From Spironucleus salmonicida (lineage: Eukaryota), in assembly GCF_000497125.1 (NCBI RefSeq), contig NC_090598.1, positions 1,488,001-1,552,000 on the forward strand: a stretch of DNA of 64,000 nt, written 5' to 3'. The translations under genes and the position numbers were made by a program. Position 1 is the stretch's first letter. Every line of letters starts with the position of its first letter. This document shows positions 1 to 36,100 of this stretch, piece by piece. The notes beneath the pieces were generated by a model, which was not told the DNA's origin, did no database searches, and was given only the letters and a program-made list of their open reading frames with translations.

Positions 1-2392
1 CCTATCTCCTTTAGGTTGCGCTACGGACAAGAAGAATTTAGCATTACGTTTTATCCAGATGAAACTGGAGATTGAAAACGGAGCTGACATCCTAGACGCC
101 TTTAACTAATTCATAGGCGCATTCAGAAGAAAACAGGCATGTAACACCAGACGCGATACCAATCAAAAATAGATAGATTTCTGCTTTTAGAGAGGACAGA
201 CTGGAAAGGCATGGAACCTTATTAAGGAAAATTAGAACAAGTAGAACCTATCCCCAGAAAACGCCAGCTCCAGACCGGACCTGGTTAGAGAGTTATTTTA
301 GGAAAACCGGAAACCCGAATATGAATCGGCATCGCGGTAGGGATCAGTAAGAACAGCGCTGCAAGCGCCAACGGCAGAAGAGATTACGAAGATAATCCTA
401 TAGTACCGGGATGGCAAAGCAGGCGGCCCGAGTGGCATTCTTCCAGCCCACCTGAAAGAACTTGAGAAGTCTCATCACATCTCAAACATTCTTGCGAAGG
501 TATACAAACTAATACTTGATACACCATCCCTAGTGAACAAGACTAGGAGACTATTCGAATACCGGATAATCTTCATCCCAAAGAACGCGACCAAGTTTAG
601 ACCGATTTGCATACAGGAGTTATTCCTATAAGTCCTGCACAAAGCACTGGCAGAGAAGATGAAGCAGCAACTAACCCTAGGCAATTATCAATTCGCCTTT
701 ACCAAAAACGCTCTCCTCAGAGCCAAATATTAAGCTAATATCATGCTTAAGAATGGGCTCACCCTTACTTCCCTTGACGTACGAAACGCCTTTAACGCCG
801 TACCTCATAAAGTAATCGAAGAAGAACTCGTGAAAGCCGGCCTAGCACCGGAAACCAACCAATACATCCAAGCCTTTTTGATGGCGCGGAATGCGGAGGG
901 GTTGGAAAGGCTAGGCACCGGCGTCCCCCAAGGGGATCCATTGTCCATGATGCTATTCTGTGTTGTAATGCGCCCGATCCTAGATCGGCTCGCAGGCAAA
1001 TACAAGGTTATCGCATCGTACGCGGACGATGTCCTGATAGGTCACGATTCAGGAGTAAACCTCAAAGACTGTGAAAGCGTCTTTGCAGACTACGGGCTAA
1101 CCCTGTCTGTGGAGAAATGCATAACAGCCTCCCCCACCCAAGCGATTAAATTCGTTGGGTAAGAATTTAAGGACAAACCGATACCGTTAACAGATCACTT
1201 GCTCCAAACCGCTCAGGATGCCTTCCTACTCCTCGAGCAATCGAAGCTCGGGACCACCCAATAACGGTTCCAGATGTTTGTACAATGTATTGTTCCCTCA
1301 GTCAACTATGGCCCACTTGTGGACGTCACGGATGACTAGGAAGCCGGATATACGAAGATAGACGACAGCCTTGTTGCCACCACCTCGCTGATAGCGGGAC
1401 TAAGCATAAAGATTGAAACTCTATTGGATAGCTAGATCCGGGGTGGAATGAACGTGATCACACCTGGTCGCTTCTACCCACTCATGACCGCAGCACGCGA
1501 TGAATTCCATGAGAACAATCACTGCGTCTTTAGAAATATCAGGGAGAAAATCAAAGAACTCGTTCCGGACGATCCAGATCCTGGACGCCCGATGATTTTC
1601 CCCTGCATCTTAGGAGCCACCAGGCTCCCTGGACAGTCTGTCCAGTATCTCTTGAACTCGGCTTTCGGCCCGGTAGCGACACCCAGTAAAACCCATTTGT
1701 GTACGCTATGCGGTACCCCTAAGATTGGAGATCACGACCAAAAATGCAATAGAAATAGCGGAATCCGAATAGTTAGACACAACAAGGCTGTCTCAGCCGC
1801 GATGAACTGCCTAGCGAAGTACGAGCCCCGTGAAATAACACGTCAATAAGCTCCTGAAGGAAAGTTTTATCCGGACTTCAGAATCATTGTAAGTAAAATC
1901 CTGACAGTAGACCTAGATGTCACGTTTACTTCGCAAGAGAATATGGACGCGAAATTTGCAGAAAAGGTTAGAAAGCATAAATTGCCTGACCCTAACCAGA
2001 CTATAATCCCAATGGTTATCTCACATGAACTTTAAATTCATCGCGAGACACTCAAGTTGTTGAAATTCCACTTCCCGGAGTTCAACTACAGGAAATTTAT
2101 GGAAGCGGTGGGAACTGCGACCTGTTTCTATAGACAGGACTCAGTTCGAAACAACACTGCACGATAGATCATAGCTCTCCAGGATAGGAACTATGGTTTA
2201 GAGGAAGACGTTGCAATACGTCTTAATTGGAGAAATGCTGCGAAGAATAACAATCGCAGGCGCCAGCACGCCAGAGGGAGTGCTGTCGCACCCGGGCCGT
2301 GAGGCCAGGGAAAACAAGAAAACCCCCCCCGACAGGGGCAGTAAAGATCCCATATACGCAATGAGGAATGGCAGTACTCGAGTGATCTTTTA

Positions 2393-2427
<35 letters not shown>
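1..2427 (+). mobile_element. Non-LTR retrotransposon (RLE type) inserted in histone H4, copy 1; 5' part lies outside the window
   Basis: Matches 5225-7645 at an offset of 5224 (ORF-track peptides identical). Ends in a 34-nt poly(A) at 2394-2427, joined to H4 sequence CAAATCCGAGAAGG at 2428. Confidence 0.95.
2..2302 (+). CDS. Retrotransposon RT-RLE protein, copy 1 (5'-partial at window edge; TAA/TAG=Gln)
   Basis: Same sequence as the copy-2 ORF; TGA at 2300-2302. Motifs KAGGPSG, FIPK, FRPI, LDVRNAFN, GVPQGDPLS, YADD, CTLCG..DHDQKC, RH, YPD..DLDVT..K. Confidence 0.93.
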
Positions 2428-2428
<1 letters not shown>

Positions 2429-2680
2429 AAATCCGAGAAGGATGCACTCACAGGCATCACCAAGCCTGCCATACGCAGGTTGGCGCGCAGAGGTGGCGTG
2501 AAGAGGATCTCGTCCACGATCTACCCCCAGACGCGCGAGGTGCTGAAGGCGTTCCTGGACGTGGTCATCAGGGACTCGCTGACCTACACTGAGCACGCGC
2601 AGCGCAAGACGGTGACGTCGCAGGACGTGGTGTACGCGCTGAAGCGCCAGGGCAAGACGCTCTACGGCTTCGGGATCTGA
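2428..2680 (+). pseudogene. H4: Histone H4 3' portion, separated from its 5' end by retrotransposon copy 1
   Basis: [28 protein letters not shown]...LYGFGI-TGA follows the poly(A) directly. Confidence 0.93.
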
Positions 2681-2862
2681 GTGATGCTATTCTTGTGGTA
2701 CTCGTTGTGTGAGCGTGTGGTGCATAGGGCTTCCGTGTCTAGTGGGGTGGCGTACTTCCTGCACAGTGCCATAGTGCATATATGTAATATAATAATACTC
2801 ATTCGGGCTTCCCGCAAGTATGATAGTGTATATAAATAATATAATACTAAGGACTCACGATT

Positions 2863-3259
2863 CCCGCAAAGTACCATACTGCCCGAGTATGGTATAATAG
2901 TACCAAATTACGGCTCCCGCCCAAATGCCATACTTCACATATGCAACATTATAATCATAATCCTTCATGGCTCCCTTCCACTCGGCTGGTTTCCCATGGG
3001 CGGGATGTCAAGGGGGCCTTGCCGAAGCCCTTGCCCTTGCCTTTTCCCAACGTCGGTTGGCATGCAGCGTATAATAATGTAATGTTGGTGTCCCTTCCGA
3101 TATGTTAAAGTGGGAATAGGCAATATAATAAAGGGGATTTTCCCTTTCCCGCGAAGTATGATAGGGCATATATACGGTATTATAGTGAGTATTCCCGCTC
3201 CCCGCAAAGTACCATACTGGCCGAGTATGGTATAATAGTAGCAAATTACGCCTCCCGCC
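2863..3259. repeat. Spacer-internal ~59-bp direct repeat (2863-2921, 3201-3259), each with a 9-bp-stem palindrome
   Basis: CCCGCAAAG-TACCATACT-G(C/G)CCG-AGTATGGTA-TAATAGTA(C/G)CAAATTACG occurs twice per unit. Confidence 0.85.
3015..3053 (-). other. Inverted H4 N-tail-like fragment in the spacer, present in every unit
   Basis: Minus strand reads ACG TTG GGA AAA GGC AAG GGC AAG GGC TTC GGC AAG GCC = [13 protein letters not shown] versus H4 [13 protein letters not shown]. Confidence 0.75.
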
Positions 3260-3965
3260 AAAACAGCATTCTGCACATAAATACGCGTGGGCGTATATAA
3301 ATAATACATATATGGCCTATAGCCACTATATGTGCGAGGTTCCTCTACCACCCCACACGGTATTCATATGCTCATAATGGCGAAGTGGGCCGTCGTCCAC
3401 CTCGTCCCCACCAGAGGAGAGAACTCGCCCGGTTTGCCCTTGCCCTTGCCCTTCCCGGACGTCCGCAGGAGCTCGTCCGGAGGCTGGCAGTACCGCCCGG
3501 TCTCGCCCGGCGTGGCACGCACTTGCTTGGGCGGCGTGCGATGGCGCGAGATGACACCCGATGCATGGCACGGCGCGAGATCATCTTAGATGGCCTGCCT
3601 GCCGTGCCCCGCGCCCCGCGCCCATATGGGGCCTACGGGGCCGAGATATGGAGTTCCGGTGAAAATGAGTCTGCAGTTCTGCATATTGAACACGGTAAAT
3701 TTAGTAGATAGATATTTGTATACATCACATATAACATACATACCTATATTCCATAAATCCCTATATGCATCTATATATACTTATACCTATATTCGCACAC
3801 CGCAACCACTTTCGTCACTATAACTATATATTATTCATATTAAAACTCGCTCCCGCCCCCGCCCCAACATATATATTTTATATAGCATATATAAGTATGG
3901 GTTCGCGAACCGATAGCTGGTTTCATCACCAACCTCATAATGCAGGAGTGAGGGTGCTATCAACA

Positions 3966-6900
3966 ATGTCTGGAAAAGGAAAGGGAAAAGGTTTTGGAAA
4001 GGCGACAGACTCGGAGAACACTAGCGATAGTGTAGACCCTGTTGCTCTCACCGCCTAATAAATTCGTATTAGAAGCCTGTTCAAACAGGCACCTGCTCTA
4101 CCCCAACCCCAACCCCAGTCGATCGCTAGTCACATTTCTTCTACCATGAAGAAGCAATAGGCACCTCCAACGTCTAATGGTGACCCCTCGACTTTGACAT
4201 ATTCCCCCTTCACATAAGTTTCAAGCGTGAGACTGTTCAAGCAGGGCCAGGCAAGCCGGGAGGCTCCTGTGCTCTCAGATAAGACCAATAAATCTATCAT
4301 GAGCTTCGTGAAAGCAAGAGAAGAAGAAAGAGCCCCGCAAGGTGCTCCGGACACTTCGGCTGCCGACACTCAGAATCGCGCGCAATTCCCTTCCACACAA
4401 ATTCACGGGGAAACTACAGCTGCGCTCGTTAACTGCCAAGACGAGTAAGCTTAGGAGGTAGCTAGTCTAGCTGCCCCTAACGCAGCGGAAGTGACTGAAC
4501 AACCGCCCTCCTCATAGGTTGCCAGTTAAGAAGGGGCCCCAACCGATTAACCTAGCCTCTAACCAGAGAGCTAAGAGGAAAGCGAGGCCCCGCCTCGCCC
4601 GGATCCCCCAGATGCTCCGGACTACGGGATAGACCCACCAATTCCCAGGCTACCCTCACAAAACATACCGGTAGAGCCCAGAGTCAGACCTCAACTGAAT
4701 TCAATCACCCGGTATGGTATCGTCCACGAGACGAGATCTCAGACAAGACTTATTCCTGAGACACGTGCCCCAAGCACAACAGAAAGTAACGAACACGCTA
4801 GACCAAGGAACCCTGACAAGCCTTTTGAATGTCAGGCATGCACCTTCGCGTCGTCCGACCCCACGAGCCTGCTGAGACATCACGCGCTCACGAGAGGCGG
4901 ATAGCACGATATAAAGTTCCCGCTACTTAGATACAAAGAAGTTTACGAAGACCCCAAACTCTTCAGATTCTACTGTGGAATCTGTAATCACCCTTTTACG
5001 AAGAAATTAAATGTCATGCTCCACCTAATGGATGGAAAATGCAAGAACAAGTAAGGAATGACAAACGAAGCTGCCCAATTGCTAGTAAGAAATAGAGATG
5101 TCTATAGCCTCGAACTAGAGGAATAGCTGGCAAAAGCATCGGCCGCCAAGGCGGCAAGAGCGAAGAGTATAGCAGAATAAATAACTGCACCCAAAATAGG
5201 ACTTCCACCGGAAGCGACGATCAACCTATCTCCTTTAGGTTGCGCTACGGACAAGAAGAATTTAGCATTACGTTTTATCCAGATGAAACTGGAGATTGAA
5301 AACGGAGCTGACATCCTAGACGCCTTTAACTAATTCATAGGCGCATTCAGAAGAAAACAGGCATGTAACACCAGACGCGATACCAATCAAAAATAGATAG
5401 ATTTCTGCTTTTAGAGAGGACAGACTGGAAAGGCATGGAACCTTATTAAGGAAAATTAGAACAAGTAGAACCTATCCCCAGAAAACGCCAGCTCCAGACC
5501 GGACCTGGTTAGAGAGTTATTTTAGGAAAACCGGAAACCCGAATATGAATCGGCATCGCGGTAGGGATCAGTAAGAACAGCGCTGCAAGCGCCAACGGCA
5601 GAAGAGATTACGAAGATAATCCTATAGTACCGGGATGGCAAAGCAGGCGGCCCGAGTGGCATTCTTCCAGCCCACCTGAAAGAACTTGAGAAGTCTCATC
5701 ACATCTCAAACATTCTTGCGAAGGTATACAAACTAATACTTGATACACCATCCCTAGTGAACAAGACTAGGAGACTATTCGAATACCGGATAATCTTCAT
5801 CCCAAAGAACGCGACCAAGTTTAGACCGATTTGCATACAGGAGTTATTCCTATAAGTCCTGCACAAAGCACTGGCAGAGAAGATGAAGCAGCAACTAACC
5901 CTAGGCAATTATCAATTCGCCTTTACCAAAAACGCTCTCCTCAGAGCCAAATATTAAGCTAATATCATGCTTAAGAATGGGCTCACCCTTACTTCCCTTG
6001 ACGTACGAAACGCCTTTAACGCCGTACCTCATAAAGTAATCGAAGAAGAACTCGTGAAAGCCGGCCTAGCACCGGAAACCAACCAATACATCCAAGCCTT
6101 TTTGATGGCGCGGAATGCGGAGGGGTTGGAAAGGCTAGGCACCGGCGTCCCCCAAGGGGATCCATTGTCCATGATGCTATTCTGTGTTGTAATGCGCCCG
6201 ATCCTAGATCGGCTCGCAGGCAAATACAAGGTTATCGCATCGTACGCGGACGATGTCCTGATAGGTCACGATTCAGGAGTAAACCTCAAAGACTGTGAAA
6301 GCGTCTTTGCAGACTACGGGCTAACCCTGTCTGTGGAGAAATGCATAACAGCCTCCCCCACCCAAGCGATTAAATTCGTTGGGTAAGAATTTAAGGACAA
6401 ACCGATACCGTTAACAGATCACTTGCTCCAAACCGCTCAGGATGCCTTCCTACTCCTCGAGCAATCGAAGCTCGGGACCACCCAATAACGGTTCCAGATG
6501 TTTGTACAATGTATTGTTCCCTCAGTCAACTATGGCCCACTTGTGGACGTCACGGATGACTAGGAAGCCGGATATACGAAGATAGACGACAGCCTTGTTG
6601 CCACCACCTCGCTGATAGCGGGACTAAGCATAAAGATTGAAACTCTATTGGATAGCTAGATCCGGGGTGGAATGAACGTGATCACACCTGGTCGCTTCTA
6701 CCCACTCATGACCGCAGCACGCGATGAATTCCATGAGAACAATCACTGCGTCTTTAGAAATATCAGGGAGAAAATCAAAGAACTCGTTCCGGACGATCCA
6801 GATCCTGGACGCCCGATGATTTTCCCCTGCATCTTAGGAGCCACCAGGCTCCCTGGACAGTCTGTCCAGTATCTCTTGAACTCGGCTTTCGGCCCGGTAG

Positions 6901-7526
6901 CGACACCCAGTAAAACCCATTTGTGTACGCTATGCGGTACCCCTAAGATTGGAGATCACGACCAAAAATGCAATAGAAATAGCGGAATCCGAATAGTTAG
7001 ACACAACAAGGCTGTCTCAGCCGCGATGAACTGCCTAGCGAAGTACGAGCCCCGTGAAATAACACGTCAATAAGCTCCTGAAGGAAAGTTTTATCCGGAC
7101 TTCAGAATCATTGTAAGTAAAATCCTGACAGTAGACCTAGATGTCACGTTTACTTCGCAAGAGAATATGGACGCGAAATTTGCAGAAAAGGTTAGAAAGC
7201 ATAAATTGCCTGACCCTAACCAGACTATAATCCCAATGGTTATCTCACATGAACTTTAAATTCATCGCGAGACACTCAAGTTGTTGAAATTCCACTTCCC
7301 GGAGTTCAACTACAGGAAATTTATGGAAGCGGTGGGAACTGCGACCTGTTTCTATAGACAGGACTCAGTTCGAAACAACACTGCACGATAGATCATAGCT
7401 CTCCAGGATAGGAACTATGGTTTAGAGGAAGACGTTGCAATACGTCTTAATTGGAGAAATGCTGCGAAGAATAACAATCGCAGGCGCCAGCACGCCAGAG
7501 GGAGTGCTGTCGCACCCGGGCCGTGA
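3966..7526 (+). CDS. H4-tail::retrotransposon fusion ORF, 1186 aa: H4 residues 1-13, disordered Pro/Gln/Glu-rich region, two zinc fingers, reverse transcriptase, CCHC knuckle, PD-(D/E)xK endonuclease
   Basis: Hand translation with TAA/TAG=Gln from the H4 ATG at 3966 meets no TGA until 7524-7526. ZnF1 KPFECQACTFASSDPTSLLRHH (~4818); ZnF2 FYCGICNHPFTKKLNVMLHLMDGKC (~4968); RT GQTGKAW, KAGGPSG, FIPK, FRPIC, QFAF, LDVRNAFN, GVPQGDPLSM, YADD; CTLCGTPKIGDHDQKC; RHN; FYPDFRI..DLDVTF..EKVRKH. First internal ATG is at 4146. Confidence 0.9.
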
Positions 7527-7645
7527 GGCCAGGGAAAACAAGAAAACCCCCCCCGACAGGGGCAGTAAAGATCCCATATACGCAATGAGGAATGGCAGTA
7601 CTCGAGTGATCTTTTACAAAAAAAAAAAAAAAAAAAAAAAAAAAA
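4006..7645 (+). mobile_element. Non-LTR retrotransposon (RLE type), complete copy 2, inserted after H4 codon 13
   Basis: 5' junction ...GGAAAGGCGA|CAGACTCGG; 3' junction CTTTTAC(A)28|CAAATCCGAG. Intact H4 reads GGCGA-AAAGACA-CAAATCC, so 7 bp are replaced and there is no TSD (3640-7=3633=5218-1585). Confidence 0.96.
7605..7609 (+). promoter_or_regulatory. Putative polyadenylation signal AGTGA of the retrotransposon
   Basis: AGTGA lies 8 nt before the poly(A). The same pentamer overlaps the TGA stop of many host genes here (20092, 25549, 28418, 45364, 47776, 56710) and follows the H4 stop (TGAGTGA). Confidence 0.55.
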
Positions 7646-7898
7646 CAAATCCGAGAAGGATGCACTCACAGGCATCACCAAGCCTGCCATACGCAGGTTG
7701 GCGCGCAGAGGTGGCGTGAAGAGGATCTCGTCCACGATCTACCCCCAGACGCGCGAGGTGCTGAAGGCGTTCCTGGACGTGGTCATCAGGGACTCGCTGA
7801 CCTACACTGAGCACGCGCAGCGCAAGACGGTGACGTCGCAGGACGTGGTGTACGCGCTGAAGCGCCAGGGCAAGACGCTCTACGGCTTCGGGATCTGA
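7646..7898 (+). pseudogene. H4: Histone H4 3' portion, downstream of retrotransposon copy 2
   Basis: H4 coding sequence resumes immediately after the poly(A). Confidence 0.93.
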
Positions 7899-9183
7899 GT
7901 GATGCTATTCTTGTGGTACTCGTTGTGTGAGCGTGTGGTGCATAGGGCTTCCGTGTCTAGTGGGGTGGCGTACTTCCTGCACAGTGCCATAGTGCATATA
8001 TGTAATATAATAATACTCATTCGGGCTTCCCGCAAGTATGATAGTGTATATAAATAATATAATACTAAGGACTCACGATTCCCGCAAAGTACCATACTGC
8101 CCGAGTATGGTATAATAGTACCAAATTACGGCTCCCGCCCAAATGCCATACTTCACATATGCAACATTATAATCATAATCCTTCATGGCTCCCTTCCACT
8201 CGGCTGGTTTCCCATGGGCGGGATGTCAAGGGGGCCTTGCCGAAGCCCTTGCCCTTGCCTTTTCCCAACGTCGGTTGGCATGCAGCGTATAATAATGTAA
8301 TGTTGGTGTCCCTTCCGATATGTTAAAGTGGGAATAGGCAATATAATAAAGGGGATTTTCCCTTTCCCGCGAAGTATGATAGGGCATATATACGGTATTA
8401 TAGTGAGTATTCCCGCTCCCCGCAAAGTACCATACTGGCCGAGTATGGTATAATAGTAGCAAATTACGCCTCCCGCCAAAACAGCATTCTGCACATAAAT
8501 ACGCGTGGGCGTATATAAATAATACATATATGGCCTATAGCCACTATATGTGCGAGGTTCCTCTACCACCCCACACGGTATTCATATGCTCATAATGGCG
8601 AAGTGGGCCGTCGTCCACCTCGTCCCCACCAGAGGAGAGAACTCGCCCGGTTTGCCCTTGCCCTTGCCCTTCCCGGACGTCCGCAGGAGCTCGTCCGGAG
8701 GCTGGCAGTACCGCCCGGTCTCGCCCGGCGTGGCACGCACTTGCTTGGGCGGCGTGCGATGGCGCGAGATGACACCCGATGCATGGCACGGCGCGAGATC
8801 ATCTTAGATGGCCTGCCTGCCGTGCCCCGCGCCCCGCGCCCATATGGGGCCTACGGGGCCGAGATATGGAGTTCCGGTGAAAATGAGTCTGCAGTTCTGC
8901 ATATTGAACACGGTAAATTTAGTAGATAGATATTTGTATACATCACATATAACATACATACCTATATTCCATAAATCCCTATATGCATCTATATATACTT
9001 ATACCTATATTCGCACACCGCAACTACTTTCGTCACTATAACTATATATTATTCATATTAAAACTCGCTCCCGCCCCCGCCCCAACATATATATTTTATA
9101 TAGCATATATAAGTATGGGTTCGCGAACCGATAGCTGGTTTCATCACCAACCTCATAATGCAGGAGTGAGGGTGCTATCAACA

Positions 9184-9483
9184 ATGTCTGGAAAAGGAAA
9201 GGGAAAAGGTTTTGGAAAGGCGAAAAGACACAAATCCGAGAAGGATGCACTCACAGGCATCACCAAGCCTGCCATACGCAGGTTGGCGCGCAGAGGTGGC
9301 GTGAAGAGGATCTCGTCCACGATCTACCCCCAGACGCGCGAGGTGCTGAAGGCGTTCCTGGACGTGGTCATCAGGGACTCGCTGACCTACACTGAGCACG
9401 CGCAGCGCAAGACGGTGACGTCGCAGGACGTGGTGTACGCGCTGAAGCGCCAGGGCAAGACGCTCTACGGCTTCGGGATCTGA
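9184..9483 (+). CDS. H4: Histone H4 (99 aa), intact
   Basis: [44 protein letters not shown]...[12 protein letters not shown]; diplomonad-type short tail. Confidence 0.98.
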
Positions 9484-10768
9484 GTGATGCTATTCTTGTG
9501 GTACTCGTTGTGTGAGCGTGTGGTGCATAGGGCTTCCGTGTCTAGTGGGGTGGCGTACTTCCTGCACAGTGCCATAGTGCATATATGTAATATAATAATA
9601 CTCATTCGGGCTTCCCGCAAGTATGATAGTGTATATAAATAATATAATACTAAGGACTCACGATTCCCGCAAAGTACCATACTGCCCGAGTATGGTATAA
9701 TAGTACCAAATTACGGCTCCCGCCCAAATGCCATACTTCACATATGCAACATTATAATCATAATCCTTCATGGCTCCCTTCCACTCGGCTGGTTTCCCAT
9801 GGGCGGGATGTCAAGGGGGCCTTGCCGAAGCCCTTGCCCTTGCCTTTTCCCAACGTCGGTTGGCATGCAGCGTATAATAATGTAATGTTGGTGTCCCTTC
9901 CGATATGTTAAAGTGGGAATAGGCAATATAATAAAGGGGATTTTCCCTTTCCCGCGAAGTATGATAGGGCATATATACGGTATTATAGTGAGTATTCCCG
10001 CTCCCCGCAAAGTACCATACTGGCCGAGTATGGTATAATAGTAGCAAATTACGCCTCCCGCCAAAACAGCATTCTGCACATAAATACGCGTGGGCGTATA
10101 TAAATAATACATATATGGCCTATAGCCACTATATGTGCGAGGTTCCTCTACCACCCCACACGGTATTCATATGCTCATAATGGCGAAGTGGGCCGTCGTC
10201 CACCTCGTCCCCACCAGAGGAGAGAACTCGCCCGGTTTGCCCTTGCCCTTGCCCTTCCCGGACGTCCGCAGGAGCTCGTCCGGAGGCTGGCAGTACCGCC
10301 CGGTCTCGCCCGGCGTGGCACGCACTTGCTTGGGCGGCGTGCGATGGCGCGAGATGACACCCGATGCATGGCACGGCGCGAGATCATCTTAGATGGCCTG
10401 CCTGCCGTGCCCCGCGCCCCGCGCCCATATGGGGCCTACGGGGCCGAGATATGGAGTTCCGGTGAAAATGAGTCTGCAGTTCTGCATATTGAACACGGTA
10501 AATTTAGTAGATAGATATTTGTATACATCACATATAACATACATACCTATATTCCATAAATCCCTATATGCATCTATATATACTTATACCTATATTCGCA
10601 CACCGCAACTACTTTCGTCACTATAACTATATATTATTCATATTAAAACTCGCTCCCGCCCCCGCCCCAACATATATATTTTATATAGCATATATAAGTA
10701 TGGGTTCGCGAACCGATAGCTGGTTTCATCACCAACCTCATAATGCAGGAGTGAGGGTGCTATCAACA

Positions 10769-11068
10769 ATGTCTGGAAAAGGAAAGGGAAAAGGTTTTGG
10801 AAAGGCGAAAAGACACAAATCCGAGAAGGATGCACTCACAGGCATCACCAAGCCTGCCATACGCAGGTTGGCGCGCAGAGGTGGCGTGAAGAGGATCTCG
10901 TCCACGATCTACCCCCAGACGCGCGAGGTGCTGAAGGCGTTCCTGGACGTGGTCATCAGGGACTCGCTGACCTACACTGAGCACGCGCAGCGCAAGACGG
11001 TGACGTCGCAGGACGTGGTGTACGCGCTGAAGCGCCAGGGCAAGACGCTCTACGGCTTCGGGATCTGA
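10769..11068 (+). CDS. H4: Histone H4, intact
   Basis: Same protein as 9184-9483. Confidence 0.98.
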
Positions 11069-12353
11069 GTGATGCTATTCTTGTGGTACTCGTTGTGTGA
11101 GCGTGTGGTGCATAGGGCTTCCGTGTCTAGTGGGGTGGCGTACTTCCTGCACAGTGCCATAGTGCATATATGTAATATAATAATACTCATTCGGGCTTCC
11201 CGCAAGTATGATAGTGTATATAAATAATATAATACTAAGGACTCACGATTCCCGCAAAGTACCATACTGCCCGAGTATGGTATAATAGTACCAAATTACG
11301 GCTCCCGCCCAAATGCCATACTTCACATATGCAACATTATAATCATAATCCTTCATGGCTCCCTTCCACTCGGCTGGTTTCCCATGGGCGGGATGTCAAG
11401 GGGGCCTTGCCGAAGCCCTTGCCCTTGCCTTTTCCCAACGTCGGTTGGCATGCAGCGTATAATAATGTAATGTTGGTGTCCCTTCCGATATGTTAAAGTG
11501 GGAATAGGCAATATAATAAAGGGGATTTTCCCTTTCCCGCGAAGTATGATAGGGCATATATACGGTATTATAGTGAGTATTCCCGCTCCCCGCAAAGTAC
11601 CATACTGGCCGAGTATGGTATAATAGTAGCAAATTACGCCTCCCGCCAAAACAGCATTCTGCACATAAATACGCGTGGGCGTATATAAATAATACATATA
11701 TGGCCTATAGCCACTATATGTGCGAGGTTCCTCTACCACCCCACACGGTATTCATATGCTCATAATGGCGAAGTGGGCCGTCGTCCACCTCGTCCCCACC
11801 AGAGGAGAGAACTCGCCCGGTTTGCCCTTGCCCTTGCCCTTCCCGGACGTCCGCAGGAGCTCGTCCGGAGGCTGGCAGTACCGCCCGGTCTCGCCCGGCG
11901 TGGCACGCACTTGCTTGGGCGGCGTGCGATGGCGCGAGATGACACCCGATGCATGGCACGGCGCGAGATCATCTTAGATGGCCTGCCTGCCGTGCCCCGC
12001 GCCCCGCGCCCATATGGGGCCTACGGGGCCGAGATATGGAGTTCCGGTGAAAATGAGTCTGCAGTTCTGCATATTGAACACGGTAAATTTAGTAGATAGA
12101 TATTTGTATACATCACATATAACATACATACCTATATTCCATAAATCCCTATATGCATCTATATATACTTATACCTATATTCGCACACCGCAACTACTTT
12201 CGTCACTATAACTATATATTATTCATATTAAAACTCGCTCCCGCCCCCGCCCCAACATATATATTTTATATAGCATATATAAGTATGGGTTCGCGAACCG
12301 ATAGCTGGTTTCATCACCAACCTCATAATGCAGGAGTGAGGGTGCTATCAACA

Positions 12354-12653
12354 ATGTCTGGAAAAGGAAAGGGAAAAGGTTTTGGAAAGGCGAAAAGACA
12401 CAAATCCGAGAAGGATGCACTCACAGGCATCACCAAGCCTGCCATACGCAGGTTGGCGCGCAGAGGTGGCGTGAAGAGGATCTCGTCCACGATCTACCCC
12501 CAGACGCGCGAGGTGCTGAAGGCGTTCCTGGACGTGGTCATCAGGGACTCGCTGACCTACACTGAGCACGCGCAGCGCAAGACGGTGACGTCGCAGGACG
12601 TGGTGTACGCGCTGAAGCGCCAGGGCAAGACGCTCTACGGCTTCGGGATCTGA
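12354..12653 (+). CDS. H4: Histone H4, intact
   Basis: Same protein as 9184-9483. Confidence 0.98.
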
Positions 12654-13938
12654 GTGATGCTATTCTTGTGGTACTCGTTGTGTGAGCGTGTGGTGCATAG
12701 GGCTTCCGTGTCTAGTGGGGTGGCGTACTTCCTGCACAGTGCCATAGTGCATATATGTAATATAATAATACTCATTCGGGCTTCCCGCAAGTATGATAGT
12801 GTATATAAATAATATAATACTAAGGACTCACGATTCCCGCAAAGTACCATACTGCCCGAGTATGGTATAATAGTACCAAATTACGGCTCCCGCCCAAATG
12901 CCATACTTCACATATGCAACATTATAATCATAATCCTTCATGGCTCCCTTCCACTCGGCTGGTTTCCCATGGGCGGGATGTCAAGGGGGCCTTGCCGAAG
13001 CCCTTGCCCTTGCCTTTTCCCAACGTCGGTTGGCATGCAGCGTATAATAATGTAATGTTGGTGTCCCTTCCGATATGTTAAAGTGGGAATAGGCAATATA
13101 ATAAAGGGGATTTTCCCTTTCCCGCGAAGTATGATAGGGCATATATACGGTATTATAGTGAGTATTCCCGCTCCCCGCAAAGTACCATACTGGCCGAGTA
13201 TGGTATAATAGTAGCAAATTACGCCTCCCGCCAAAACAGCATTCTGCACATAAATACGCGTGGGCGTATATAAATAATACATATATGGCCTATAGCCACT
13301 ATATGTGCGAGGTTCCTCTACCACCCCACACGGTATTCATATGCTCATAATGGCGAAGTGGGCCGTCGTCCACCTCGTCCCCACCAGAGGAGAGAACTCG
13401 CCCGGTTTGCCCTTGCCCTTGCCCTTCCCGGACGTCCGCAGGAGCTCGTCCGGAGGCTGGCAGTACCGCCCGGTCTCGCCCGGCGTGGCACGCACTTGCT
13501 TGGGCGGCGTGCGATGGCGCGAGATGACACCCGATGCATGGCACGGCGCGAGATCATCTTAGATGGCCTGCCTGCCGTGCCCCGCGCCCCGCGCCCATAT
13601 GGGGCCTACGGGGCCGAGATATGGAGTTCCGGTGAAAATGAGTCTGCAGTTCTGCATATTGAACACGGTAAATTTAGTAGATAGATATTTGTATACATCA
13701 CATATAACATACATACCTATATTCCATAAATCCCTATATGCATCTATATATACTTATACCTATATTCGCACACCGCAACTACTTTCGTCACTATAACTAT
13801 ATATTATTCATATTAAAACTCGCTCCCGCCCCCGCCCCAACATATATATTTTATATAGCATATATAAGTATGGGTTCGCGAACCGATAGCTGGTTTCATC
13901 ACCAACCTCATAATGCAGGAGTGAGGGTGCTATCAACA

Positions 13939-14238
13939 ATGTCTGGAAAAGGAAAGGGAAAAGGTTTTGGAAAGGCGAAAAGACACAAATCCGAGAAGGA
14001 TGCACTCACAGGCATCACCAAGCCTGCCATACGCAGGTTGGCGCGCAGAGGTGGCGTGAAGAGGATCTCGTCCACGATCTACCCCCAGACGCGCGAGGTG
14101 CTGAAGGCGTTCCTGGACGTGGTCATCAGGGACTCGCTGACCTACACTGAGCACGCGCAGCGCAAGACGGTGACGTCGCAGGACGTGGTGTACGCGCTGA
14201 AGCGCCAGGGCAAGACGCTCTACGGCTTCGGGATCTGA
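13939..14238 (+). CDS. H4: Histone H4, intact
   Basis: Same protein as 9184-9483. Confidence 0.98.
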
Positions 14239-15523
14239 GTGATGCTATTCTTGTGGTACTCGTTGTGTGAGCGTGTGGTGCATAGGGCTTCCGTGTCTAG
14301 TGGGGTGGCGTACTTCCTGCACAGTGCCATAGTGCATATATGTAATATAATAATACTCATTCGGGCTTCCCGCAAGTATGATAGTGTATATAAATAATAT
14401 AATACTAAGGACTCACGATTCCCGCAAAGTACCATACTGCCCGAGTATGGTATAATAGTACCAAATTACGGCTCCCGCCCAAATGCCATACTTCACATAT
14501 GCAACATTATAATCATAATCCTTCATGGCTCCCTTCCACTCGGCTGGTTTCCCATGGGCGGGATGTCAAGGGGGCCTTGCCGAAGCCCTTGCCCTTGCCT
14601 TTTCCCAACGTCGGTTGGCATGCAGCGTATAATAATGTAATGTTGGTGTCCCTTCCGATATGTTAAAGTGGGAATAGGCAATATAATAAAGGGGATTTTC
14701 CCTTTCCCGCGAAGTATGATAGGGCATATATACGGTATTATAGTGAGTATTCCCGCTCCCCGCAAAGTACCATACTGGCCGAGTATGGTATAATAGTAGC
14801 AAATTACGCCTCCCGCCAAAACAGCATTCTGCACATAAATACGCGTGGGCGTATATAAATAATACATATATGGCCTATAGCCACTATATGTGCGAGGTTC
14901 CTCTACCACCCCACACGGTATTCATATGCTCATAATGGCGAAGTGGGCCGTCGTCCACCTCGTCCCCACCAGAGGAGAGAACTCGCCCGGTTTGCCCTTG
15001 CCCTTGCCCTTCCCGGACGTCCGCAGGAGCTCGTCCGGAGGCTGGCAGTACCGCCCGGTCTCGCCCGGCGTGGCACGCACTTGCTTGGGCGGCGTGCGAT
15101 GGCGCGAGATGACACCCGATGCATGGCACGGCGCGAGATCATCTTAGATGGCCTGCCTGCCGTGCCCCGCGCCCCGCGCCCATATGGGGCCTACGGGGCC
15201 GAGATATGGAGTTCCGGTGAAAATGAGTCTGCAGTTCTGCATATTGAACACGGTAAATTTAGTAGATAGATATTTGTATACATCACATATAACATACATA
15301 CCTATATTCCATAAATCCCTATATGCATCTATATATACTTATACCTATATTCGCACACCGCAACCACTTTCGTCACTATAACTATATATTATTCATATTA
15401 AAACTCGCTCCCGCCCCCGCCCCAACATATATATTTTATATAGCATATATAAGTATGGGTTCGCGAACCGATAGCTGGTTTCATCACCAACCTCATAATG
15501 CAGGAGTGAGGGTGCTATCAACA

Positions 15524-15823
15524 ATGTCTGGAAAAGGAAAGGGAAAAGGTTTTGGAAAGGCGAAAAGACACAAATCCGAGAAGGATGCACTCACAGGCAT
15601 CACCAAGCCTGCCATACGCAGGTTGGCGCGCAGAGGTGGCGTGAAGAGGATCTCGTCCACGATCTACCCCCAGACGCGCGAGGTGCTGAAGGCGTTCCTG
15701 GACGTGGTCATCAGGGACTCGCTGACCTACACTGAGCACGCGCAGCGCAAGACGGTGACGTCGCAGGACGTGGTGTACGCGCTGAAGCGCCAGGGCAAGA
15801 CGCTCTACGGCTTCGGGATCTGA
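15524..15823 (+). CDS. H4: Histone H4, intact (last in array)
   Basis: Same protein as 9184-9483. Confidence 0.98.
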
Positions 15824-18012: not shown

Positions 18013-18711
18013 TCATTCTTTATAGGTTCTGAGATCATCACCAAGTTCTTAAGCAGCCCAAAGATCAGGGGTAAGGAAAGTGTAAGATTTCTTTAAGGCG
18101 TTGAACATAGCACCAACTGAATTCATAAGAGTTCTGGTGTGACCGAACTGACGAGAGAATACGTCTTCAATACCTGCAAGAGCAATGAGTTCTTTGACTT
18201 TAGGAGCAGAAACGATGCCAGTACCACGAGGTGCAGGAATGAGTCTGAAAGTAACAGAACCGCACTTACCAGAAACCTTCTGGGAGATGGTATGAGGATT
18301 ACCCATCTTAGAACCCCAATATCCACGTCTGATGGGTATAAGGTTGAGCTTTGCATTAACTACAGCCTTCTTGACAGCCACAGCCACTTCCTTAGAAACA
18401 CCAGAACCATAACCGATATGACCATTACGATCACCAACAATTACAGTGGCATGGAAACGAGTACGCTGGCCAGCAGAGGTCTATTTCTAAACAGAACGAA
18501 CCTTCACTACTTTTTCTTCAAGAGTGATGAAGTTGTCAATGATTTAAGCTTCTTTGCAAGGGAGGGAGTATTTAAATACTTCAGCTAAAGAAGTTACTAC
18601 ACCAGACTTAACTAAACGACCAAGTTTAGTAGTAGGGTTCCAAATTTCTTCAGGCTTAGCTCTGGGAGCACCTCTTTCACCACGCTGTTCTTACGTTCTT
18701 TCCGTAGACAT
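18013..18711 (-). CDS. RPS2: 40S ribosomal protein S2 (uS5), 232 aa
   Basis: WNPTTKLGRLVK, VQKQTSAGQRTRF (the two Gln of VQKQ encoded by TAG), IPIRRGYWG, GKCGSV, LIPAPRGTGIV, FLTPDLW. Confidence 0.97.
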
Positions 18712-18844
18712 TAGCAGGGAGTGGTAATACAGAAATTGAATTTAATTAAATAATAATTAATATTATATAATAATGATAAACCTGAAACTAATTGATCTGC
18801 ATTCTATATATTATATCGAATTATCTATTATATATAAATTCAGA

Positions 18845-20092
18845 ATGTCAAAAATAACCTAGCTATTTTTTTCTAACAAATACTAGCTAGCTATTGACGA
18901 AATTGATCTGGAGTTGAAATAAGGTGCAAATAACTATTTATTGCATATGTAGGGTCTGTGCTTGCGGGCATTGGGTAGAATATCAGATTCATTATTTTCA
19001 TTTTAGCAGGCCCTAGATTTCGATAAATTCAATTATAAAACGCACATTGAAACGCTCAAAGCACTACTTTTAACTGCTGATTATCCGCTTTGTCTAGAGT
19101 CGGTGGAGATGTCAATCGCATTTTTCGAGTCTCAAAATCTCAAATCGCAACTTTGGTATTTATATCAGATTAGAGGTTTTTGCATGCTGCGTATGGGCAC
19201 ACCGGTGGAGTCCCTGGACCCCTTATTTCGTGCATATGAGCTGAATCCCAACTTCCAAACGAAGTTCACAATCGGTCGCGTTCAGGCCCAATTGGAGCAG
19301 TACCCGGACGCCATTGAAACGCTATCAGACATCCTACAATTTGCACCAGCGCACGTAGATGTCCTTTTAGATCTTGCAAATTTGTACTTCTCGTAGAACG
19401 ATTTCGACTCGGCGTTTGACTGCTTTTCAAGGGCCACAATTGCGTCCCAGAGGACTCATTAGAACCGTCCAGAGCCTTATTTTGGCGTTGCATTTTTGTT
19501 GCAGGAAGAAGAGCCGAAAGCCGCCCTGGAGAAGTACCAGCAGGCTGGAGCGTGCTATTCGAACTTCAACGACGCGCATTCCTGGGCGAATCTGGCAGCA
19601 TTATTTGTGGAGCTTAAAAAGCTGCCTGTCAGCTTGACTTGCGCAAGGCGTGCGTTTTCACTGAGTTAAGATAGTTAGATTAGGCAGACTTTAGGATAAA
19701 TCTACATTATCATGAAAGATTACGTCAGAGCGTTTCATATTTTGTCATATTTTGCTAGTTCTAGCGAGCCTGAGCCCAAATGGTTGTTGGGAATTACAGC
19801 GTATGAATTAGGGGAGGAAAAAATTGCGTTTAGTCAGCTTGAAAAAGCAGCAGAAGTAATTTTTGGTGCAGGTGTTTGTGGTCTCCGTTATAGTATTAAA
19901 AGCAATGATATCGATAGAGCAAAGCGATTTGTTAAGTTAATTAAAGGCTGCGACTGTGAGGATAAAGAAGAAAAGAGAGTAGCTAAAATACTAATTTAGT
20001 TATTAAAAGAAAAGCTCAAAGGTGAGGAGGAAGATGGTGGCGACATTGAAGGTGGAGTTTAAGCGGAAGATGAGTAGAACTAATAAGAGTGA
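18845..20092 (+). CDS. BBS4: TPR protein, BBS4-like (415 aa)
   Basis: Single frame joining track ORFs 19103 and 19712; TPR helices. GLCLRALGRISDSLFSFQQA and DYVRAFHILS resemble BBS4 by recall. Confidence 0.6.
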
Positions 20093-30184: not shown

Positions 30185-33100
30185 ATGGAGGACAAAGTAT
30201 ATATGTTTATTAAATCATTTTATGATGAACGATTTCATTAGTGCCTTAGAGAATAACTTTAAAATTTAGAAAGAACGCAAGATTTATATCAAATTAGAGA
30301 AATTTAGCTCATTTAAGTGTCATCAGAAGAAGATAAAATGTTGAGTAGCATTAATTATAATATTATTATTAATTAACCATCAAAAGTATTTTACATATAT
30401 GGACAACTAATTGGGGATTTTAACAAATAAACATTACTCAGATAATTGTCATTTATGATAGAACAAAATGCACATCAAGAGGTTAATTCATTTATACCTA
30501 AACTTAAATAATTAGATTAGTTAATACAAGTATATAAATTAACTGAAATAATATTAATGCCAACACTATACAATATTTACAATATTTCTAATTTTGCAAA
30601 ATTCTTTAGTGTTATTTAATTAAAGTTATAGTAAAATGAGTTATTATAATTTGTAGACTATGGATAGTTGTTTCCTAATATACCAGTTAGTATAACGGAA
30701 ACTTCAATCATAAAGTCTTATTAGAACTTTTTTTAGTATTAAGCTAGAAAAAAACTAAAAATTACTCAGAATATAAAAATTTCAAGCTAAATTTCTGGAA
30801 ATATTATTAAAATTACTCCAAAAAATAAGTAGGTCATAATTTTAGCTACAAAAATATTATATATTTTATTAGAAACTTACCTTTAATAACTTATTAATAT
30901 AGAACAATCAACATCTATGACTGGAATAAATGTAACCTATTAACAAATTATATTATAATTTTAAAAAAGTTAATTTAATCTTAGTTAAATATTTACTCTA
31001 TTAAAGTAATAAGAATTTTTATAAATTTTTGATGTTCTTTAATAATATAGATATTCAATATAAATGGGGCTATTTTCGGCATTACCATAGTTAAATAGTT
31101 AAATTGATGAATCATTGAAATTAATAGATGATTTATTTGACTGTAAATAGACATTATTTATTGCTTTAGATAATCATGAAATATAATTAACAAAGACAAT
31201 TTAATTATACTAGTAGCTGTCTTAACATTTATGGCTTATTAATAATCCTGATGTTAAAATAAAATTAATATTTAGTTATTTTAATCGAAAAGTGGAATAA
31301 AGATATTATTTTAAATCTAAAGGTTTTATATGCTTACTACTAGAAATATAATAGTTTTATTTAAATTCTTTTGATAATATTTAAATTATAATACTAAATA
31401 ACAAAAAATTATTAAATTTAACTGAGTTTGAGACAATGCAAATAATAAACGTTGTTATCAATGATATTGTAAATTTTTTAAAGATATTATTAAGTAATTT
31501 AATATAATTTATATTTACACGAGTAAGTTAGTTTTAAATTGATCTAGGATCAAGCTTACTTATTTCTTAGTCATCTAAAGAATTTTAAACGGTACTATCT
31601 ATAGATAAATAGATTATTGAATTTTATAATTCATAACCAAATGCAATTTCTCTTTTAAGATCTTTATTATTAATAAATGGCTAGGACTTTTAAAAATATT
31701 ACGCTTAGGATAATGATTTTATATTCGAAGATTTTAATGATTACTATAGTTAATAGGTATTAGAAATAACAGGGTAAGATTTATTATTGATGAATTTTTA
31801 AGAGTATGTTTTACTAGGCCCAGGATTGGTATAGATTTTTATTAAAATAAACCATCTGGCATATGTTATAACAAGCTAATTAAAAAGTATGATAATGAAT
31901 CTTAGATAACAGTAATTAAAAGAAGTAAGTATTAAAATGGAATAAGTTTTTAAATCCATCTAAAATGATCTTAACCTGTTTGATAGTTAAATAATTTTAT
32001 CATTAGAATATATTAAATATTTAAAAACGATTAACTAATATTCATAGGTTAAGTTTTTGGGTAAATTAGATTTAAGAGAAATTATCTTGCATAAATAGTT
32101 AGATACAGATAATAATGTATCTTCACTTATACCATTATAAGAAGAATAGCTAAACTACAATAATCTATAATTTACATCTTAACTTATTGAGTAAGAATTA
32201 TCATTTCTATTAGAAGACTTATAAGTTGATGTCATATCATAATTTTTAACAGCAATTGATTATTATTTCTTAGAATTTCATTAGTTTACTTTAGATTTTG
32301 TCGAAAAACTTCATCAAAATAATAATACAGCAACAACTGAAAAATTTTTCAATGAAAATGATATTTAAATGTCTTCATCACTAAAAATATTCAACTAAAA
32401 TAAAAACTTAATTAATGTACAAGGGGGATCTTGGACAAGAGTCTAAAATATTTCTTAATATGCGGATTTATTTGGATTTAATTTATATACATAAGAAACG
32501 GAACGATTTTAGATTTATTAATAGAATATAGTAGATTTTAATATTATTCTTTCAAAATCTTTGCTAAATATTATTTAATCTTAACTATAATTGAAAGAGA
32601 ATTTAGATTTGGATATACAGTTAAAATTTTTAGGAAAAATTTCTAGTCCCATATCTTAGAAAAATAATAATCTAATAGATTTATAATTTTAAAAGAGCTT
32701 CATTTCTATTGTAAATAAATTAGGAATTTATCTAAAAAATTCAGAATAGTATGTAATAAATATTATACAGAAGAAAGAGCAAGAATTTTAATACATATTG
32801 AAGTCTACATTGAAATCACCATTTACTGTTACTAATTTACCTTCTATTGTTTTATACTTATCACATATTTATAGAAACATTGTTGGTATTAATAGATCTG
32901 TGGAATCTGTTTAAAATATGATGAAAAAGTTTCCATCAAATGAAGATTTTGATATAATACTTTTACGATCATTAGATTTAACTAATAATACTAGTATTTT
33001 ACTATAATCTTTTTTTAAGTTATGGCAGTAATCCCGCATAACTTCATTTTTTAAAAAATAATTATAAGACCCACTACTAAAAAATAATATACAATATAAT

Positions 33101-36100
33101 TCTAAGAATTTATTAGTTGAAGATAATATCAGTTTTGCTTTATATGACAGATTTAACTATTGTTTTTCGTAGGTTCTATAACATTTATACACATAAGCTC
33201 AAGATTCAATACATATACTACTGTTATTTAAAGAGATGAATTATTAGATTAATTACCCTGAAGCATTATTTAAAACAAGTTTCGAGTTAACATGCTTATC
33301 TAGACTTTAGTTTTTTAAGCCTTAAAAAGAATATCATAAATTTATATTAATAGCTCAAGAATCTTAGTAAAGTGTTCCAGTATTATAAAAGATTCTGTCA
33401 TATAGATCATAGATTATCAATTTATTGGGAATTTAATAAATTTTTGCAGATATGTTTATTTATTAAGTTATAGATTTAGAGATATAGTTAATTGATCTAT
33501 CTTTCCTAGTTACATGGAGTTCGGTTAGATCTTAAAATTCAATAAATAAGTTACTAGAACTATATACTGAACTTTTTTAGATAATTAAGTTTACTATTTA
33601 AAAGTTTAAATAAATGTATAATCCATTCCTATAAGATGTTTATTAAGATTTTACAGATATTATTATGGAAAGAATATAGAAGCTAATTATTGGTGAAAAT
33701 AAACTATCATTTGTTTAAATACAAGTTTTATTTCTAGACATGGTAAAATAGCATTTTTAAAATATTCATATTTCATATACTAATCTTTTTTAAATTACTT
33801 AATTTATTAAAACTTAAATAAAGTCAATTTCATCAACATCATTATTATTTTTCATACTTCTTATTAATAGTAATCGGTAAATGTATCTACTATAGAAATT
33901 GTATAGTAGTATGACACTTGTAGACTTAATTTAGTCACATTAAAATATTTCATTATAATTAGCTCATCCATTCTATGACTATCTAAATAGTTAAATAGAA
34001 ATACAGTTTATAGAAATGATTTAAAAGGAAGTTATTAAAAGTTATTGTAGGTTTATTACATAATTCTTTATATTTATATTAGAGCAAGATTATTTTGAAT
34101 TTAATATTAATGTGGAAAATGATTAAATTAGTATATACCCATCAATTAACAAAATTTAATGTTAATTTTTAAAATTAATTTAAGATTCATACAAAATAGT
34201 ATTCAACAGTACATTATTTAATTTATCATTAGATGACCATTAAAATTTCATTGAATTAAAGTTATATATTTTATTTTATAAAATTGAAAATATTATTCAA
34301 AAAAAGATAGATAATAGCTAAAATATTATTCAACATATAAATATTAATATAAAAAATAGAAATTAAGTGTTAGAAGAACCAACAATTCATCAAATTTTTA
34401 TTTAAGAAAAAGAAATGACAGAATTTATTAAAATATCATAATTGGAATAAGAGATTTGTGCAAAAGTTTCTACAATATAGTAGTTATAAACAAAATAACT
34501 AGATTTAGAGCTATAATTTTCAAAAATGAAATGGATAAATACTAAGCATATATCATTATCTTTTAGATTATAAACATACTAGAACTAACTATAGTAGTCT
34601 AACTTAGTTAGAATAAATATATCTTAGCTGTTATAAAATTTAGAGATATTTTTATAAACTTTTTATTTTTGTAATTATAATTTATCTAAATATGAACAGG
34701 TAAATTCATATATATAAAGTTTAATTTATGGAACCGATTAATTAGAGATCTTATACCAACGCTCTCAGCATATTGATAATGTAATTAAATCAAACATTAC
34801 CTTAATTGGAAAAAGATAATATGTATTTTTTGATAGTTAATTTGAATATTTTGTCTAAAAATTTTATAAAACAGATGAGCAATTTATTTATAATTTATAA
34901 TAAGTATTAGATTCTGTTAGATTGAAATGTGAAACATAAAGGTAAAGTCTTTAAAACCTTAGCAAAAATTTAACTTAGTATTTATTGCGATCTTGTGATG
35001 ATATTGTTGCTTCATTTTAAATTACATACAATCAATACTATACTAATGGTCCTACGTAATATTATACTAGCAATTTTACCAAAGAGAGTTTAGGTGTCTT
35101 AGTATAGTTACTTTTATCAACAGATAAGAAAAAATTTATTAAACGGAAGGAATAAACTTCAGTGTATTATGAATAGATATTATCAAGCCAAAATTTTTAA
35201 ATTATTAGCTTACATGATATAACTAAGTATTTATTAGGCTTTAAGCATAACGATATCTTTATAGTTGATTCTTAGACTAATATATTTATTTTAAGTGAAG
35301 AACCTAGTCATATTTCCTCAGCAAAAATATAGTACTTAAATAATAATTAAATTAGTTTGTAGATGTTAAATTAAGAGCTTGCATCGAATATAGATATTGT
35401 AATTCAATAAGTATTTGAAAATGTATTTGATATCAGTTTGAACGAATAATATATCTTATTTTCTGGTTATATTTTTCCGAATAAATTAGACTATTTTAAT
35501 GATTGTACTTAAAAGTCTATTGACTTGAACAAAAGTTTTTAGTATATTTTTAGTTCATAATAACTTAAGATTAATTAGCTTTAGATTTTAATAAAAATAT
35601 AAACAATATATGCAGTTCAAGGACAATTACCTATAGAATAAATAATTAGATTAGTTAAGTATATAGATTAGTTGGACCAACTTTTTAGAGTAATCCTTCA
35701 AACAAATACTATTATATAATAATTTTATAGAATTAAGGCTTAAATTTTATTTTCTCCGTTGCATTCTCAGTCTAGCTAGCTTTGGTATCCTGGTAAAAGT
35801 AATGCTAATACTGTTTTGTAATTTTTCATATAATAATTAACAGAATAGATCAGTATTCTACATTAATTGATCGTTAGTTTTGATCTTATTTATTCTAAAT
35901 AGTTTTTTGTTTTTGCCAAACTTATTTATTTTATTTATTATTCTTTTAAAGAAGTTATATTAAAATCATTTTCAATTGTTAATGACTATAAGTATGATTT
36001 TTTAAAGTAAGCATTTATCGAAGAGAAAATTTAAAGAGTAGAAACTATTGGAGATATAATAGAGTTGTATTTTAGACCTGAAAATTTTATGATCACAATT

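Follow-up and report, generated by a model that had tools for sequence, protein, structure and literature searches.

Histone H4 Array and Its Insertions

The window, that is, the whole stretch of 64,000 nucleotides (nt) of Spironucleus salmonicida DNA analysed here (NC_090598.1; all positions are 1-based on this stretch), begins with a tandem array of histone H4 genes, some of which are interrupted by a retrotransposon without long terminal repeats (non-LTR) that probably uses these genes as its target. The array takes up the first 16.7 kb and has a GC content of about 44–52%, against about 20–25% for the genome. Its unit is 1,585 bp long and contains one H4 gene of 99 amino acids (aa), whose product is 92% identical to a named Hexamita H4. 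Six H4 starts (3966, 9184, 10769, 12354, 13939 and 15524) and seven H4 3′ parts beginning with CAAATCCGAG (2428, 7646, 9231, 10816, 12401, 13986 and 15571) are located in the window. Two of the seven units are filled by the retrotransposon, and the other five are empty, each with an intact 99-aa H4. Both copies have the orientation of H4, and in both a poly(A) tail is joined directly to CAAATCCGAG (34 A, ending at 2427, and 28 A, ending at 7645). Because the window edge truncates the upstream copy, a single 5′ junction lies inside the window; across the 2,395 nt that could be compared, the two copies show no difference. All of this agrees with the initial annotation, which had described two adjacent H4 units with the same element, a common 3′ junction and orientation, and five empty neighbours. 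The extent it gave, 3966–7898, takes in the whole interrupted H4 gene, while the element proper is 4006–7645.

Comparison with an empty unit showed that H4 nt 1–40 stand before the insert and nt 48 onward after it. Nucleotides 41–47 are missing (7 nt, or 6 if the last A belongs to the tail), and there is no target duplication. The other 56 kb of the window contain no further copy or fragment of the element.

Fusion Reading Frame and Predicted Protein

Under genetic code 6 the element is a single open reading frame (ORF) of 1,186 aa, which runs from the H4 ATG at 3966 to a TGA ending at 7526 and in which 32 TAA/TAG codons are read as Gln. Code 6 has been assigned to hexamitid diplomonads (PMC11787283), and together with the H4 identity to Hexamita it puts the host in that group. 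With the standard code (table 1), the same ORF falls into pieces of less than 140 aa. The protein consists, in order, of 13 H4 residues, a Pro/Ser/Ala/Gln-rich stretch, two zinc fingers, a reverse transcriptase (RT) with YADD, a CCHC knuckle, and RH, PD, D and K motifs. The 275 open codons ahead of the first zinc finger have a chance probability of 0.005 and do not look accidental. In the 90% protein cluster there are three members, all of 1,186 aa and all beginning with the H4 tail; they differ by 1–2 residues, the ORF and the catalytic motifs are intact in all three, and they may be real variants or consensus errors.

The RT was matched by RVT_1 of Pfam (E 3.6e-23), and a profile of 23 relatives matched R2 both in the RT (E 3e-31) and in the region of knuckle and endonuclease (E 2.7e-10). 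The AlphaFold model has a predicted local distance difference test score (pLDDT) of 76, with low values in the zinc-finger region. The closest structures found by Foldseek are R2 complexes of target-primed reverse transcription (E 3.9e-25), and VIA-align puts chains of LINE-1 and of R2 first (Z 28.8 to 23) without separating them; for aa 1–380, the ESM Atlas returned generic zinc-finger clusters only. In the order of its domains and in its predicted fold, the protein is like R2-type proteins of target-primed reverse transcription, a reaction that this non-LTR retrotransposon of the restriction-like endonuclease (RLE) type would use as well, and by analogy with R2-type elements, the N-terminal zinc fingers likely bind target DNA. 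The features of this type are found together in the element: a single ORF with zinc fingers, RT, CCHC and a PD-(D/E)xK-like endonuclease, ends without self-match, A tails of 28 and 34, and a target loss of 6–7 nt.

Neither Myb (Pfam) nor a 5′ ribozyme like that of hepatitis delta virus (Rfam) was matched in the element, and either search can miss divergent forms. Rfam gave no match in window positions 2400–9500, ribozymes and 28S ribosomal DNA (rDNA) included. The idea that the first 30 nt of the element are a decayed downstream H4 copy was rejected, because 40 of 354 other 30-mers of the element and 332 of 2,000 shuffles scored equally well.

Copies and Transcription in the Read Runs

Contigs were examined from four runs (X1, X2, X3 and X8) among eight runs that contain the stretch; these eight carry one organism label and come from two studies. 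X1 and X2 are DNA runs of one sample, perhaps the source of the window sequence. No run is recorded as RNA; four were guessed to be RNA, X3 and X8 among these. The element is unbranched in the contigs of all four runs. In X1 (one contig, 3976–7607) and in X2 (3976–7554) it has no joint, and among the loose ends listed for these two runs none lies at its 5′ end; the unique ends of the array do appear as loose ends, at 3552 (X1 and X2) and at 7824 (X2). In all four runs the element's 5′ end meets only H4, among the loose ends listed. Since there is a single contig without a joint and no listed 5′ loose end, we infer that abundant truncated or dispersed copies are absent. It had been considered with the initial annotation that most copies might lie outside H4, and this is not the case as far as the contigs of the four runs and the window show. 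The contig depth ratio of element to H4 is 0.41 in X1 and X2 alike, which gives a rough figure of occupancy. The X2 loose end equivalent to 7824 joins unique DNA to a 5′-truncated H4 and is probably the far end of the array.

In X3 and X8, untemplated A tails occur at 7913–7916, which is 11–14 nt past the H4 AGTGA, and the depth in the downstream spacer (7924–8050) is zero; both runs therefore behave as RNA. The contigs of the element start inside H4, at 3979 in X3 and at 3977 in X8, and reach depths of 4,471 and 3,489, respectively, against 262 and 26 for the spacer contigs. The element is transcribed. Transcription, code 6, the ORF in frame with the H4 ATG, the 13-residue H4 fusion and the missing H4 nt 41–47 without target duplication all go beyond the initial annotation. 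The spacer upstream of H4 (3400–3960) is also covered by low-depth RNA-like contigs in X3 and X8, which suggests that it is transcribed as well.

Table 1. Positions of the element, its parts and the H4 genes in the window.
Feature	Position	Strand	Remark
Full-length non-LTR retrotransposon, 3,640 bp including tail, inserted after H4 nt 40	4006..7645	+	
Single ORF, 1,186 aa, code 6, from H4 ATG; 13 H4 residues, then element; first internal in-frame ATG at 4146	3966..7526	+	
5′ remnant of interrupted H4 gene, nt 1–40	3966..4005	+	
Two N-terminal zinc-finger motifs: aa 289–314 (C2H2-like) and aa 337–359 (C2HC)	4830..5042	+	low model confidence
RT core RVT_1, aa 612–808; YADD at 6243–6254	5799..6389	+	
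CCHC zinc knuckle, aa 987–1002	6924..6971	+	
RLE core motifs RH, PD, D, K; aa 1012–1078	6999..7199	+	
3′ untranslated region; AGTGA poly(A) signal at 7605–7609, 8 nt ahead of tail	7527..7617	+	signal per PMC3916229
Poly(A) tail, 28 A	7618..7645	+	
3′ remnant of interrupted H4 gene, nt 48 to stop	7646..7898	+	
Second element copy, 5′ part beyond window; 34-A tail at 2394–2427	1..2427	+	
3′ remnant of H4 gene interrupted by second copy	2428..2680	+	
Five intact H4 genes: 9184–9483, 10769–11068, 12354–12653, 13939–14238, 15524–15823; 1,585-bp period; array ends near 16696	9184..15823	+	

Several further observations concern the array and its surroundings. A spacer variant at 3807 and 15365 is common to the unit before the full element and one empty unit, while the other units differ; judged by sequence, it may be taken as a sign of exchange within the array. 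H4 codons 15–22 (9226–9249), which adjoin the insertion site, hold five of the eight differences from the Hexamita H4; these may be ordinary drift of the tail, because residues 15–16 match Giardia. After the array come a ribosomal S5-family protein and a tetratricopeptide repeat protein, and further downstream a code-6 frame of 5,059 codons (all in 18013–20092 and 30185–45364).

Relatives and H4 Proteins with Foreign Starts

A metagenome scan gave at least 80 loci from 223 pattern matches, mostly with long code-6 frames. One of them, L003, is a metagenome contig from a code-6 host, and its element protein is 28% identical to that of the window. At its 3′ end, the stop codon (2501–2503) and an AGTGA (2573) are followed on the same strand by H4 codons, which start with Lys14 at 2588 and continue as far as the contig does. 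All 19 residues of this H4 part are those of the H4 protein P0267, while the best score is 7 of 19 among the other 79 loci and 9 of 19 among 300 shuffles. Element and H4 meet at codon 13/14, no more than 9 nt from the window site. Since the two proteins are 28% identical, L003 did not arise by a copy spreading inside one array. Its junction lies 9–10 nt past the poly(A) signal, compared with 8 nt in the window, and this similar spacing argues against a random chimera. The 3′ ends of both elements fold more stably than shuffled sequences (L003 2490–2590, z −5.0; window 7500–7620, z −2.5) and are candidate protein-binding structures.

Among the matches listed there are 49 diplomonad-type H4 proteins, of which 42 have an intact tail, 2 a late start, 1 an ordinary non-diplomonad tail and 4 a foreign N-terminus. 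The foreign part ends at H4 residues 13–15 in P0268, P0269 and P0379; in P0394 the foreign start is near residue 29. A frameshifted H4 start was tried as the origin of the first three N-termini and explains at most one residue. Going by the protein sequences, AGTGA could code for the last foreign residues of these three, in two of them together with a short A tract. Relatives in the H4 genes of other diplomonads, which the initial annotation had proposed to look for, are represented by L003 and probably by P0268, P0269 and P0379.

In L001 and L040, the 5′ sequence recurs after the 3′ end, which indicates head-to-tail arrays of related elements. L075 (2093–2226) contains a distant RT element whose poly(A) is followed by GGTTA repeats, a telomere-like target. 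P0366 is a hexamitid-type H4 fragment labelled as coming from a metagenome-assembled genome of Clostridia, likely owing to bin contamination. Rfam, run on 20 of the 80 loci, and ARAGORN, run on 60, gave no match. Viral contigs contained neither a relative of the element nor an H4 pattern, and prokaryote genomes gave no H4 pattern and six weak RT matches.

Phylogeny and Classification

In a quick tree, 33 of 115 rows were dropped (near-duplicates and surplus outgroups); a careful tree was built from 45 chosen rows with LG+G4 and no mixture model, and it holds no named CRE, NeSL or R4 sequences. The window element falls into a 42-row clade with Giardia proteins (support 100/100) against three outgroup proteins; it has a long branch, and its placement inside this clade is weakly resolved. 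By its sequence, the element belongs to the Gil/Genie-like group of diplomonads. GilM/GilT have been placed in CRE (PMC10088271). The window element is not one of GilM/GilT proper as defined by telomeres, since both copies are flanked by H4 and ordinary genes follow the array, nor of the R2 clade as defined by insertion in 28S rDNA, the flanks being H4.

It has been proposed that an element is target-specific when the same target occurs in more than 20% of its flanks (PMC4494074). In the window, H4 is found in 2 of 2 3′ flanks and in the only 5′ flank; it also stands at the start of 3 of 3 protein variants and at the 5′ ends in 4 of 4 runs. Between hosts, the window element and L003 are inserted within 9 nt of each other.

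Proposed Mechanism and Alternatives

In the explanation that we regard as probable, the element belongs to the Giardia Gil-like group of RLE-type non-LTR retrotransposons and is target-specific, with the tandem H4 genes as its multicopy target. Transcription would start from the H4 promoter and give a chimeric messenger RNA (mRNA) composed of a short leader, 40 nt of H4 and the element. Diplomonad ribosomes scan poorly, and translation from the first AUG, that of H4, would yield the 1,186-aa protein. In Giardia, histone transcripts start 1–27 nt ahead of the AUG (PMC1872034). The chimeric mRNA would be polyadenylated at the element's own AGTGA, a signal after which the tail follows about 14 nt downstream (PMC3916229). 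The protein would then bind an empty H4 gene near codons 13–16 and make a nick in the bottom strand near nt 47/48, from which reverse transcription would be primed on the poly(A) end of the element RNA. The end of the complementary DNA, being H4 sequence, would anneal to the upstream target, which would result in a uniform 5′ junction and a fixed loss of 6–7 nt. In R2 elements with upstream target in the template, such annealing has been proposed, and uniform 5′ junctions have been reported, one of them with a fixed 7-bp deletion (PMC3774820). The H4 promoter would thus again drive each new full-length copy, in frame as before. Copies would probably also be spread and removed by recombination in the array, and the empty units would go on supplying H4. 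Because annealing would regenerate the frame at each jump, uniform junctions cannot tell jumping from array recombination. A broader proposal, to which we give about even chances, is that several diplomonad retrotransposon lineages converged on, or kept from an ancient forebear, the region of H4 codons 13–16, and that the present one gave up its own promoter, 5′ untranslated region, ribozyme and start codon and occurs solely as an in-frame fusion to the histone mRNA, the 40 H4 nt serving as translation start, histone-tail tag and homology arm that regenerates the in-frame junction.

A number of points weigh against this explanation. By chance, a frame match with the frame open as far as the first internal ATG would occur with a probability of about 0.13, and a start with the H4 tail is found in none of 124 other RT-like proteins, many of which are fragments. 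No independent insertion was seen within this genome, the copies being identical where compared and no 5′ truncation having been seen, and the difference in tail length, 34 against 28, may be homopolymer noise. With regard to the reads, contigs drop rare variants, seven loose ends lie outside those listed, and X8 leaves out one joint and six loose ends at repeats; positions 7608–7656 are masked, so the 3′ flanks are those of the two window copies alone. The element contigs of the runs reach 27–30 letters into H4, below the 31-letter bridging rule, and do not display RNA starts, for which reason the chimeric mRNA is something we infer. As for the relatives, L003 is a single metagenome contig in which H4 covers 58 nt and poly(A) is absent, its 3′ junction differs from that of the window by 8–9 nt, and P0268, P0269 and P0379 are known as proteins without DNA context. 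H4 is touched by 1 of the 80 related loci listed: 33 loci among L001–L063 reach at least 10 nt past the stop, and just L003 shows H4, the other flanks being AT-rich DNA or the next copy, with many contigs ending before the flank. Finally, the approximately unbiased (AU) test rejects a clade of the window element with L003 and the two rows nearest to L003, L006 and L037 (p 0.0065; the group was picked after seeing the tree). Insertion in H4 would therefore either go back further, with frequent loss, or have come about by convergence. The family put forward in the initial annotation, with a protein-coding gene as its safe harbour, is thus upheld in that L003 sits near the same codon and the listed 5′ flanks are only H4. 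It is not upheld as one H4-specific lineage: the RT phylogeny that had been called for puts the element into a clade with Giardia proteins, the H4-flanked elements are not one clade, and a wider ancestral preference for H4 or convergence is possible.

The likeliest of the alternatives, though still unlikely, is that a single H4 unit was hit long ago by chance and the insertion then multiplied through unequal crossing-over and gene conversion, with no specificity for H4 and with an in-frame junction that survived through expression. The near-identity of copies and array units, the spacer variant common to a filled and an empty unit, the lack of truncated copies in the contigs, and the other flanks of most relatives, together with the missing clade with L003, would all fit such a history. 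It would nevertheless need separate chance insertions at most 9 nt from the H4 position, once in L003 and probably also in as many as three further sources, and both the intact ORF and catalytic motifs of all three variants and the lack of dispersed copies in the contigs speak against it. Improbable in our view is a loose preference, in which the endonuclease favours a short motif rich in purines, or chromatin that is open and highly transcribed, so that H4 is hit frequently, not exclusively, and was reached separately by several lineages. Junctions staggered by up to 9 nt between hosts, two H4-flanked elements that are not sisters, and relatives in AT-rich DNA or head-to-tail arrays are in line with it; the visible 5′ flanks in the four runs, all of them H4, and the remaining 56 kb of the window, free of other copies or fragments, are not. 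It would be more surprising still if the locus were a domesticated, immobile fusion gene of H4 tail and RT, kept in the array for a host function. The in-frame fusion, the abundant RNA and the intact ORF could be read in this way, but the poly(A) tail, the retained H4 3′ remnant and endonuclease motifs without damage characterize a mobile copy, and none of 127 RT-like proteins is an ortholog of the fusion outside its own cluster.

Significance and Comparison with Known Systems

The known target-specific retrotransposons use RNA genes and repeats, and a protein-coding target transcribed by RNA polymerase II (Pol II) would widen the safe-harbour idea. The in-frame fusion with the target would, if true, explain simply how an element without a promoter is both transcribed and translated. 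Other questions become testable as well: whether target co-transcription fixes the junction, in what way an essential coding array copes with many dead units, and whether the specificity for one site had more than one origin. For RNA-templated gene insertion, there is further interest in a compact RLE protein whose natural site is new.

The initial annotation knew of no described H4-specific RLE family, and none was found in the literature either; that search did not extend to Repbase, Dfam or supplements, so an entry may exist. The targets of RLE elements given in PMC4640811 are rRNA, spliced-leader, tRNA and small nuclear RNA (snRNA) genes, transposons, microsatellites and telomeres, and the word "histone" does not occur in the main text of that paper, nor in those of PMC4494074 and PMC13580325. 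Some precedence must be given to a published hexamitid genome (PMC9509377), where one sentence mentions four RT copies scattered through a tandem array of H4. Unlike the present analysis, the available text of that paper gives no reading as a retrotransposon ("retrotranspos" occurs 0 times) and no site, junction or fusion; its array may or may not be that of the window, so it is prior art rather than support.

CRE, SLACS and NeSL (spliced-leader genes) and Utopia (U2 snRNA) resemble the window element as RLE elements specific for multicopy genes (PMC4640811). The likeness to Giardia GilM/GilT (Genie) lies in the two zinc fingers, RT, CCHC and RLE, and in the closest named proteins, which are 25–30% identical (27–29% for the Giardia RT/endonucleases closest to it; E to 6e-52; these Giardia accessions are not assigned individually as GilM or GilT). 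GilM/GilT are, however, associated with telomeres (PMC10088271), whereas the window element sits in a protein-coding gene and has an ORF that begins at the host ATG. With R2 (28S rDNA), it shares the best Foldseek matches, a fixed site in a tandem array and the partial filling of that array; the co-transcription with the target and the uniform 5′ junction with a small deletion known from R2 (PMC3774820) are also similar, where co-transcription of the window element is presumed. In contrast to R2, its target is a Pol II protein-coding gene, no ribozyme was matched in Rfam, its RNA would be ended by a host-made poly(A) signal, and the start codon of the host gene can supply its translation.

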